A stretch of 32,324 bases of DNA from Candidatus Micrarchaeota archaeon. GTDB lineage: Archaea > Micrarchaeota > Micrarchaeia > Norongarragalinales > JACRGE01. Below are positions 21,870 through 23,858 of the stretch, piece by piece. The notes beneath the pieces were generated by a model. The model was not told the DNA's origin and did not search any database. It worked only from the letters and a program-made list of their open reading frames with translations. Within the stretch, counting starts at the first letter, position 1. The number at the start of each line of letters is the position of its first letter. The DNA lies in NCBI GenBank assembly GCA_016212465.1, contig JACRGE010000013.1, positions 1 to 32,324 on the forward strand, given 5' to 3'. Made by a program: the position numbers and the translations under genes.

Positions 21870-23858
21870 TTACAGGAAGTACTGGAAGTTGATTTTGCTT
21901 TCCTCCAATTTCTTCAATTCCTCTCGCACTCTTTTTGCATGCTCTTGGATTTCGTTAGTCCCTTCTGCCGAAATGTGCTTGTACCTTCCCTGAAGCTTCA
22001 GATAAGGTTCTACTGGTTTGAGTTCCGCAGGGGAGTAAGTGAACTTAAACAAGCCATTTTCTATTTCAAACAAGTTCCATAGGCCGCATTCAACCGCGCT
22101 TCTGGCTACGCCAACAGTCTGGTTGTTTGGAAAACGCCAGGAAAGAAAACAAGGGGCGTGAACCACAATGAAACGGAATCCGGTCATCGCCTTTGCTTTC
22201 TTCAGCTTTTTCTCAAAGTCAGGTAGGAATCCTATTGAAGCGGTTGCGGAATAAGGGACTGCGTGAGCAGTTGCAATGAACGCGACGTTCTTCTTCCACT
22301 CGTGTTTTCCACCCACTTCAGCAGGAGAAGTGGTAGTGGAAGCAAGAAATGGGGTGGCGCCACTTCTCTGAACTCCTGTGTTGTGAACAACGATGCCATC
22401 AGCGATGAAGTTATGCTCCCCCTCTACTCTTAAATCCAATGTTGGCTCTGTTCCTATTAATTTTTTGTATTTTACCTTCTCCATTTCAAAATACTGATTC
22501 CTTATTAAAAAGTTCTGGTACGTATACTGGCTTGGATATTTTTTGATATTCCACTCTTTTTTTTCTGAAAAGCAGATATACCCCCCTTCTGTGTCCTCTA
22601 ACAAATTTCTATAAACAATTTTAGTGCCTTTTTTTGTTTTTCGCCAATGTATTTTTCCAACCCTATAGTTCATGGTTTGCAAAAGCAGCCTAAGCCTATT
22701 TAGGAGATCACGACTTGATGAAACGAACCTAAAGCTGTTTTCAACCTTGTAGCCATCCGTTGATACGAGACCTCTGACAAAAGCTTTCTTTTCTTCTTTC
22801 GGAATCGTGAATACCCATTCGGGAATTGTTTTATTTTTTGCTCCATGACCAAAACCCATAGAATCAATAAATCTTGCCAAGTTTACTGAATTGATGTATA
22901 AGTAGTTGCTATCAGTTCTGCTCACCCTGTTTTTAAAAATACGCGAGTGCAACCAAATCAATCTTTTTCTTTCCTTGCTTTTTTCTGGTAATGCGAATCC
23001 AGTTTCTGCCTTTTTGATTCTACACCATCCATCACCGACATACATACCGAGATATTCCATCAACTCGGGGCTAGATTTTTCGGGTATTGAGATGAAATTT
23101 ATTTTATTTACTTTATAGTCGCCTTTTTTTGAAAGTCTTATATTCTTAAACCTGAAAGACTCGGCAATTTCAAGGTTCTTTAGTACAACTACCTCATCAC
23201 CGATGTTAATCTTTGCAAGTGTCTTCCAGATCAGTGTGTTTTGCTTGCCTCTTCCATTTCTCTTTAGTATTAAAAAAGGATGATTTGAAGTTGCTTTTAT
23301 AGAGTGGTGTGATGTCTCTAATTCAAACACTGGTTTTTCACCATTGTCGAATACACCCGTGCATTTTTTAAGTATTGGCCTGTATGTTTTTTGATTAAAT
23401 GCATAGATTTTATCCCCCTCCTTAATTTCCATTATTTTTTTAATACCATGTTCTGTCATTATCAGTGTTGAGCGGCTCAAACAGTTCGCATAGCATTCGT
23501 TGTCGTAGCATATGCAAACCATATCCTCATTGCGTTCCATCGCCCCGCTCAATGCGCCAAAGCCTATGTCGTAAATGCCACCGTCTCCGCCAACGCAGAC
23601 TGAAACCCCTTTCTTCTTCTCGTGCTTTAAAGCCCGAGACACTCCAGATGCAACTGCGGGAGTGTTTTCAAAGAGCGAATGAATCAAAGGAACGTTCCAA
23701 GTGGAGTTAGGGTATTTCGTGCTTGTTACTTCCATGCAGCCTGTTGCAAGAGAAACAATTATATCTTCACCAAGTCCAGCGAGGAGGTTTCGAATAGCGA
23801 TGGCCGGCCCACACCCCGGGCATGACTTGTGTCCCTTGAAATACAGTTCTTTTTCCAT
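21870..23858 (-). CDS. porB: 2-oxoacid:ferredoxin oxidoreductase beta subunit (TPP-binding, PorB-like), interrupted by an intein
   Basis: N-extein HKSCPGCG...[14 protein letters not shown]...CYDNECYAN and C-extein [10 protein letters not shown]... to the end rejoin into a protein of about 294 aa with a contiguous DNE.Y.NTG.QRS TPP-binding motif. Confidence 0.8.
   Translation of the reverse strand: [662 protein letters not shown]
22380..23483 (-). mobile_element. intein (368 aa) with a LAGLIDADG homing-endonuclease domain, inserted in the TPP-binding motif of porB
   Basis: Starts with Cys (CLSRSTLIM), has a TxxH block ([11 protein letters not shown]), two LAGLIDADG-like blocks ([13 protein letters not shown] and [11 protein letters not shown]), and ends ...[10 protein letters not shown] followed by Thr at +1. 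Short hand-counted samples give about 33% GC for the intein versus about 42% for the flanking extein. Confidence 0.8.

Follow-up and report, generated by a model that had tools for sequence, protein, structure and literature searches.

Within a 32,324-nucleotide contig of Candidatus Micrarchaeota archaeon (JACRGE010000013.1, here termed the window, which denotes the entire stretch that was analyzed), the open reading frame (ORF) for a PorB-like β subunit of a 2-oxoacid:ferredoxin oxidoreductase very probably is interrupted by an ordinary class 1 intein with a LAGLIDADG homing endonuclease, which occupies an in-frame position within the active-site loop. The porB precursor ORF (21870..23858, minus strand) specifies a protein of 662 amino acids (75.3 kDa) that comprises an N-extein, the intein and a C-extein, and that is identical to NCBI HY991_00520, labeled a 'hypothetical protein' of Candidatus Micrarchaeota archaeon. 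As delimited by the TPP_enzyme_C domain and by alignment to the β subunits 9bt4_C and 5c4i_C, the N-extein (residues 1–125; 23484..23858, minus strand) includes the start of the cysteine-rich [4Fe-4S]/thiamine pyrophosphate (TPP) domain and ends in ...YDNECYAN. The class 1 intein with its nested endonuclease (residues 126–493; 22380..23483, minus strand; 368 amino acids, 43.0 kDa) was recognized with Pfam, NCBIfam, AlphaFold2 (AF2) and Foldseek, and translation and alignment assigned residues 494–662 and the stop codon to the C-extein (21870..22379, minus strand). The original prediction, made from the sequence of the window, had placed an insert of 368 residues at 22380–23483 in an ORF of 662 codons, which proved correct to the base.

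The Intein_splicing model of Pfam matched precursor residues 133–493 (E=2e-14; score of 54 bits, cut-off 35.8), LAGLIDADG_3 matched residues 356–419 (E=5.6e-8) and TPP_enzyme_C matched residues 39–126 (E=2e-14). The intein_Nterm and intein_Cterm models of NCBIfam both exceeded their cut-offs on the precursor, and weak hits were obtained to the intein parts of the RtcB_rel_intein, GyrA_w_intein and rSAM_Tes_intein models. The latter three are 'exception' models for conserved enzymes that routinely bear inteins, in which they resemble PorB, and none of the 21 NCBIfam matches of the window protein was an intein-aware PorB model. Conservation was assessed in an alignment of the best 120 precursor homologues, which are 54–64% identical, nearly all 650–700 amino acids in length, and without exception composed of a TPP_C domain plus an intein. 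Cys1, the block A nucleophile (precursor Cys126; 23481..23483), is invariant in all 120 sequences, as are each of Thr, Asn and His in the TxxH motif of block B (T65-S-N-H68; 23280..23291), the His and Asn of the terminal VVHN in blocks F and G (His367-Asn368; 22380..22439, also recognized by intein_Cterm), and Thr+1, the first residue of the C-extein and the transesterification nucleophile (22377..22379; all on the minus strand). LAGLIDADG motif 1 (23025..23063, minus strand) contains the catalytic Asp151 (23031..23033), which is followed by GW and is retained in 118 of the 120 homologues; motif 2 (22749..22784, minus strand), which is matched by LAGLIDADG_3, contains the catalytic Asp243 (22755..22757), which is followed by GY and is present in every homologue. 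The hallmarks of a class 1 intein in sequence all are found, namely the Hint-fold blocks A, B, F and G, Cys1, TxxH, His-Asn with Thr at +1, and an insert that is removable in frame, and so are the two helices, each with a terminal catalytic acidic residue, of the monomeric two-motif LAGLIDADG (dodecapeptide, DOD) type. The initial cysteine, the TxxH motif, the two LAGLIDADG blocks, the terminal HN and the threonine at +1 that the original prediction had enumerated are evident in the translation and in the Pfam and NCBIfam matches, and the C-terminal Asn and +1 nucleophile, whose retention in orthologs it had raised as a test, are invariant along with Cys1 and the penultimate His.

Deletion of residues 126–493 yields a spliced product of 294 amino acids that was colinear over ~265 residues with two intein-free proteins, the β subunit of a four-subunit pyruvate:ferredoxin oxidoreductase (PFOR or POR; 9bt4_C; E=2e-73) and the β subunit of oxalate oxidoreductase (5c4i_C; E=1e-60). 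The junction was gap-free in both alignments, and the 9bt4_C stretch VCVDNEAYMN-TGIQRSSGTPF paired with it directly. The active-site loop GDG...DNExYxN-TGxQ(R/T)S is common to the window extein, 9bt4_C and 5c4i_C. Alignment of the two extein halves to intein-free PorB sequences was a check that had been named beforehand, and the colinear outcome, with the Pfam and NCBIfam matches, bears out the proposal of a LAGLIDADG intein in a PorB-type β subunit. The spliced protein also covered positions 10–298/300 of the NCBIfam PorB model (NF008819) in a single stretch with a score of 358 bits, compared to 314 bits for the VorB-like model, and further features of a β subunit were the TPP_enzyme_C domain, a GDG-X(24–27)-N motif, and porA and porD genes upstream on the same strand. 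The host is predicted to be a PorB-like β subunit, of the POR/2-oxoisovalerate:ferredoxin oxidoreductase (VOR) family, in an enzyme of the four-subunit type, with PorB the best-scoring family. Two observations count against this assignment: the score of the spliced protein is lower than the equivalog cut-off of the PorB model (405 bits), such that the 2-oxoacid substrate is not certain, and no gene for a γ subunit (porG; Pfam PF01558, POR) is encoded in the 32-kb window. Because of the sub-threshold score, the protein is designated PorB-like and the substrate is left unproven. The unspliced precursor scored 337.7 bits against the same cut-off, which probably explains the 'hypothetical protein' label at NCBI. 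As the precursor falls below the PorB threshold and bears this label, metabolic reconstructions could miss POR in such genomes.

The GDG motif of StOFOR binds Mg2+ along with Asn118b, and Leu123b, which is located five residues further on, corresponds to Asn996 of DaPFOR, a residue that lines the substrate pocket and rotates upon pyruvate binding (PMC5020499). With roles transferred from StOFOR (PMC5020499), the TPP/Mg2+-binding motif in the translated window protein is G91-D92-G93-X26-N120 (23499..23588, minus strand), and alignment to 1b0p identified Asn125, the −1 extein residue (23484..23486, minus strand), as the equivalent of DaPFOR Asn996 and StOFOR Leu123b (PMC5020499). The intein divides the active-site loop between Asn125 (−1) and Thr126 (+1, in the numbering of the spliced protein), five residues past the Mg2+-binding Asn120. 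The insertion had been predicted to lie inside the TPP-binding motif; it is positioned in the same active-site loop, where it would disrupt the function of the site in the precursor, but occurs five residues after the motif ends at N120. As 368 residues part Asn125 from Thr126, the 75-kDa precursor presumably cannot hold an intact site for cofactor and substrate. By analogy with the established chemistry of class 1 inteins, and given the residues that are present, splicing would commence with an N-S acyl shift at Cys1, following which the thioester would be attacked by Thr+1 in a transesterification, cyclization of Asn368 with the help of His367 would free the 43-kDa intein, and an O-N shift would produce a native Asn125-Thr126 peptide bond in the 32-kDa PorB. 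The predicted masses are 75.3 kDa for the precursor, 32.3 kDa for PorB and 43.0 kDa for the free intein.

An AF2 model of the intein, built on 55 homologues, had a mean predicted local distance difference test score (pLDDT) of 92.9 and a predicted template modeling score (pTM) of 0.90. The best Foldseek match in the Protein Data Bank (PDB) was the TliVMA intein (7qsu; E=7e-22, TM 0.74), and further matches were to PhoVMA, PI-PkoII and PI-SceI, to mini-inteins for the splicing part, and to I-DmoI for the endonuclease part. The VMA inteins TliVMA and PhoVMA (7qsu/7qss/7qst) and PI-SceI (1vde, 1lws) share with the PorB intein a Hint splicing domain that is split by a two-motif LAGLIDADG endonuclease, as well as Cys1 and the C-terminal His-Asn. 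However, they are only 11–19% identical to the PorB intein, reside in the catalytic subunit of V/A-ATPases instead of a TPP enzyme, and differ at the +1 position, which is Thr in the PorB intein. The top match among PDB sequences was the endonuclease region of PI-PkoII, including both LAGLIDADG motifs (E=2e-8). This intein, which is Pol intein-2 of Thermococcus kodakarensis (2cw7), resembles the PorB intein in fold and in the sequence of the endonuclease region, but is larger (537 amino acids) with extra domains and has DNA polymerase as its host. The nearest non-PorB inteins in sequence are those of SufB (P0125, P0138, P0139, P0154), which are ~32% identical across their full length. The host in this case similarly is a non-replicative, Fe-S-related protein that functions in Fe-S cluster assembly, but both the host and the site are different.

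Proteins related to the window precursor are encoded in 251 genomes in a scan of one genome per species across 185,579 species. Eighty of the 251 genomes were fetched, and 78 of these possess an intact intein at the same Y-x-N/C...HN/T-G-x-Q-R-S site (slashes denote the splice junctions). The archaeal carriers, as labeled by record title, include Aenigmatarchaeota, Woesearchaeota, Nanoarchaeota, Iainarchaeia (including the complete genome CP045477), Micrarchaeota, Bathyarchaeia, Hadesarchaea and Heimdallarchaeota, and the bacterial carriers include Omnitrophota, Aerophobetes, Parcubacteria, Planctomycetia, Clostridia, Cloacimonadota, Vermiphilus and Poribacteria. In a phmmer search of 1.84 billion cluster representatives, the PorB inteins formed a tight and separate cluster with >50% identity within the group and ~30–35% to all other inteins: only two full-length representatives were >50% identical, after which values dropped to ~30–35% for inteins hosted by SufB, by a T4-type portal protein and by a subtilase. 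Intein-containing proteins belong predominantly to category L (replication/repair; 61–67%), followed by category F (nucleotide metabolism; 8–22%), in the text of the main prokaryotic survey (PMC4760082), which accords with the statement in the original prediction that known inteins cluster in replication and repair proteins. The same text has no mention of ferredoxin or pyruvate (PMC4760082). The original prediction also noted no reported intein in a subunit of POR, VOR or 2-oxoglutarate:ferredoxin oxidoreductase (KOR). No description of an intein in POR or other 2-oxoacid:ferredoxin oxidoreductases was found in the full-text literature that was searched, which included the main text of the prokaryotic survey, but hundreds of database proteins carry the element, and several homologues are named in IMG as 'pyruvate/2-oxoacid:ferredoxin oxidoreductase beta subunit/intein/homing endonuclease'. 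The PorB site may be viewed as a new and widespread host and location for an otherwise ordinary intein that is abundant and partly auto-annotated in public data. Large and well conserved, the intein family extends the list of hosts to a central enzyme of anaerobic energy metabolism, with the insertion beside residues for TPP, Mg2+ and substrate.

The divergence of the inteins was compared with that of the exteins that surround them. The exteins closest to that of the window (60–65% identity) are intein-free Micrarchaeota PorB proteins of 290–313 amino acids, one of which is encoded in a syntenic PheRS-porD-porA-porB locus (L002). The closest inteins are those of P0002 (76%) and of L006 from Aenigmatarchaeota (72%), whose exteins are 46–49% identical to that of the window. 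The closest intein-bearing extein is that of P0003 (64%), yet its intein is 62% identical. Pairs of homologues with exteins that are 93–97% identical have more diverged inteins (84–94%), from which a faster rate of evolution is deduced for the intein than for its host under vertical descent. Pairs in which the exteins are 34–48% identical have inteins that still are 70–81% alike, as exemplified by L051 (Cloacimonadota) and L043 (Nanoarchaeia), whose inteins are 80% and whose exteins are 46% identical, whereas some pairs with exteins that are 76–86% identical have inteins that are just 57–61% alike. Comparison of the window with L004 yielded a nonsynonymous divergence (dN) of 0.136 for the intein, as against 0.473 for the extein. 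For several related pairs (L016/L017, L051/L065, L020/L024, L023/L027), the synonymous divergence (dS) of the intein is two- to three-fold below that of the porB extein, for example 0.52 compared to 1.65 and 0.35 compared to 1.01, which suggests recent exchange of the intein or gene conversion even among fairly close lineages. The patchy distribution that characterizes a mobile intein is found, with empty alleles among close relatives and with inteins that resemble one another across distant hosts. As judged by this pairwise comparison of divergence, the patterns point to an intein history that is decoupled from that of the extein and that would be consistent with repeated horizontal transfer through homing as opposed to co-descent.

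Several observations temper the interpretation of horizontal movement. The exteins are not separated by archaeal and bacterial labels, as archaeal, bacterial and mixed pairs all have a median identity of ~50%, and transfer of the whole porB gene may also occur or the labels may be poor. The taxon names of the carriers are those of metagenome-assembled genomes (MAGs), which may be imprecise or unreliable. In addition, the low G+C (GC) content of the intein partly is a property of the entire family, with a median of 5.5 points below the flanks. A test of independent intein movement between Archaea and Bacteria was dropped given that exteins are ~50% identical both within and between the label groups, and the argument from divergence ratios was used instead because domain labels cannot isolate cross-domain movement of the intein alone. 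Conservation of third codon positions also was considered as a footprint of the homing site: positions upstream look conserved, but this coincides with two-fold degeneracy of the upstream codons (Y, D, N, E, M) and four-fold degeneracy of those downstream, and the approach was rejected. Inspection for direct or inverted repeats around the intein revealed nothing beyond short matches at chance level.

The intein has a GC content of 35.7%, below that of the N-extein (49.1%), the C-extein (46.9%) and the window (45.0%), and GC at third codon positions (GC3) is 37% versus 50%. No other 1.1-kb stretch of the window is as low in GC, and the z scores of the intein are −5.0 (GC) and −3.6 (GC3) relative to 25 other genes. 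The original prediction was correct in its claim that the insert is AT-rich, although the hand-counted values of 33% and 42% for insert and adjacent extein were inaccurate. It had deduced a foreign origin from this composition. Across the 78 loci, intein GC tracks that of the flanks (r=0.85; the family-wide offset given above), and the window copy falls within the lowest fifth of the family with an offset of −9.6 points from the window and −12 from the exteins. GC alone is weak evidence and was set aside as proof of foreign origin, but horizontal acquisition is backed by the mismatch in intein and extein divergence. Composition was retained as supporting evidence because GC3 also is low and because the intein in L001 is fully ameliorated (50.3% versus 51.4%). 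The nearest intein resides in L004, a locus of low GC content (36.8%). The data accord with an arrival that was fairly recent and from a donor of lower GC content, without composition proving it, and the donor of the window copy probably was an Aenigmatarchaeota-like lineage of lower GC content. The sharp step in GC at both junctions, in a contig that derives from a MAG, also would be expected if metagenome assembly had fused the 1.1-kb AT-rich segment of a different organism into the gene, or if it were a dead insertion in a porB pseudogene. This explanation is very improbable: the frame of 662 codons is unbroken with exact intein boundaries and every catalytic residue in place, the same architecture recurs on 78 independent contigs, and a chimera would require two breakpoints located precisely at the splice junctions.

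If the intein is mobile as favored here, its endonuclease would cut empty porB alleles at the conserved ...YDNExYxN/TGxQRS coding sequence, and repair then would copy the intein into the cut allele. The conserved active-site codons would afford a stable homing target at which imprecise deletion would kill the enzyme. A candidate homing site of 72 bp was reconstructed in which GTTTGCATATGCTACGACAACGAATGCTATGCGAAC is followed directly by ACAGGAGTTCAGAGAAGTGGCGCCACCCCATTTCTT, with the insertion point between the two. Among 12 close family pairs, dN/dS is 0.04–0.12 for the intein and 0.04–0.16 for its endonuclease part, showing that the whole element, including the endonuclease part, is under purifying selection in these pairs. 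Together with the decoupled phylogeny, these ratios indirectly support the view that the window intein may promote homing cleavage. Full-length, endonuclease-degenerate, mini and intein-free alleles all were found and represent stages of the homing cycle. P0343 (454 amino acids) has a mini-intein of 170 amino acids at the same site from which the endonuclease domain is deleted, and P0126 (607 amino acids) has a same-site intein in which both catalytic motifs are degenerate (GDGW to ASGQ and SDG to TNG); Cys1, HN and Thr+1 are kept in both. P0029, a PorB homologue of 1005 amino acids, possesses two inteins, one at the site studied here and a second of LAGLIDADG type at GDGG/C...LNGN/TFDIG, within the GDG Mg2+/TPP motif, that ends in Gly-Asn instead of His-Asn. 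Because P0029 carries this second intein in the GDG motif, there are at least two insertion sites for inteins in PorB. With full-length, degenerate, mini and empty alleles and a second site, the family provides a clean natural dataset for the homing cycle and for gene flow among uncultured archaea and bacteria.

The decay of the endonuclease that is seen in P0126 (ASGQ, TNG) and in P0343, where the domain is gone, raises the possibility that the window intein splices but no longer cuts, and is a fixed and immobile passenger that is kept since imprecise loss would wreck the PorB active site. Motif 2 of the window intein also departs from the family consensus (GLVSTDGY in place of GLMLSDGY). Nevertheless, the same GLVSTDGY sequence is found in the full-length members P0008 and P0029, and the window intein retains both catalytic Asp residues and all 53 columns that are invariant in an alignment of 56 sequences. 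The low dN/dS of the endonuclease part, which was determined in close pairs of other family members, and the un-ameliorated GC3, which hints at recent arrival, further count against loss of cleavage, and an immobile window copy is considered rather unlikely.

An improbable alternative to a purely selfish element is that the intein has been co-opted as a thiol-, redox- or oxygen-gated splicing switch that holds the oxygen-labile POR inactive until the cell is reduced. Other inteins are documented to splice conditionally, including by way of a disulfide 'redox trap' (the subject of PMC5790916 and PMC7360933; Callahan 2011 as referenced in PMC4760082). The PorB intein employs Cys as its nucleophile, Cys41 of the intein is invariant in alignments of both 56 and 11 sequences, and the window protein has an additional Cys at −4 (DNECYAN/C) as in a minority of homologues. 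The whole intein also is more strongly conserved than the host, and a redox switch, if true, would explain this level of conservation in the many archaeal and bacterial lineages, anaerobic and for the most part uncultured, that carry it. However, the residue at −4 is Ala in 100 of the 120 homologues, the many intein-free alleles in close relatives reveal that the host does not need the intein, and the decoupled histories of intein and extein suit a selfish element.

Upstream of the interrupted gene on the minus strand, porA for the α subunit (25038..26174) is the operon partner: the protein contains the POR_N and PFOR_II domains of Pfam and has PorA_Arch as its best NCBIfam match, with a score of 457 bits that is below the cut-off of 550. 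The porD gene (26311..26553, minus strand) encodes the δ subunit, a ferredoxin-like protein with two [4Fe-4S] clusters that matched PorD_KorD with 84.8 bits relative to a cut-off of 60. Genes for LemA and for an M48 peptidase separate porD from the adenosine kinase gene in the window. The arrangement in L004 is a normal porG-porD, and the Micrarchaeota-like relatives L001 and L002 instead have unannotated ORFs of 304 and 142 amino acids between porD and porA.

An ORF of 385 codons (23877..25034, minus strand), annotated as HY991_00525 by NCBI where it is called as 366 amino acids, is situated between porA and the intein-bearing porB with spacers of 3 nt and 18 nt. The product had no match in Pfam, NCBIfam, PHROG or PDB, and matched only itself among 5.8 billion proteins. 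The GC and GC3 values of the ORF are typical of the genome. L001, L002 and L004 have no comparable ORF between porA and porB, with at most an ORF of 54 amino acids in L004, and the protein is unrelated to those specified by the ORFs of unknown function that relatives have at comparable positions. Near each of its termini the protein contains the heptapeptide KRNDRFV, and a single-sequence AF2 model, which predicted an all-helical structure, was unusable (pLDDT of 40).

Elsewhere in the window, no tRNA genes or Rfam elements were detected, and ORFs at 916..3306 (plus strand; 796 amino acids) and 10631..11653 (minus strand; 340 amino acids) lacked Pfam matches at E≤1e-5. The archaeal LonB protease is encoded by a single ORF of 667 codons (17609..19612). 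In L001 (10046..12642), LonB is called as two adjacent genes for proteins of 364 amino acids (Mg_chelatase) and 455 amino acids (AAA, Lon_C), which could reflect a frameshift, splitting of the gene or the presence of an intervening element. The ORF at 6138..8585 (plus strand) in the window specifies a protein of 815 amino acids with two GtrA/DPMS transmembrane domains and a ribulose-phosphate 3-epimerase domain, which, provided that the ORF is called correctly, is an unusual fusion.

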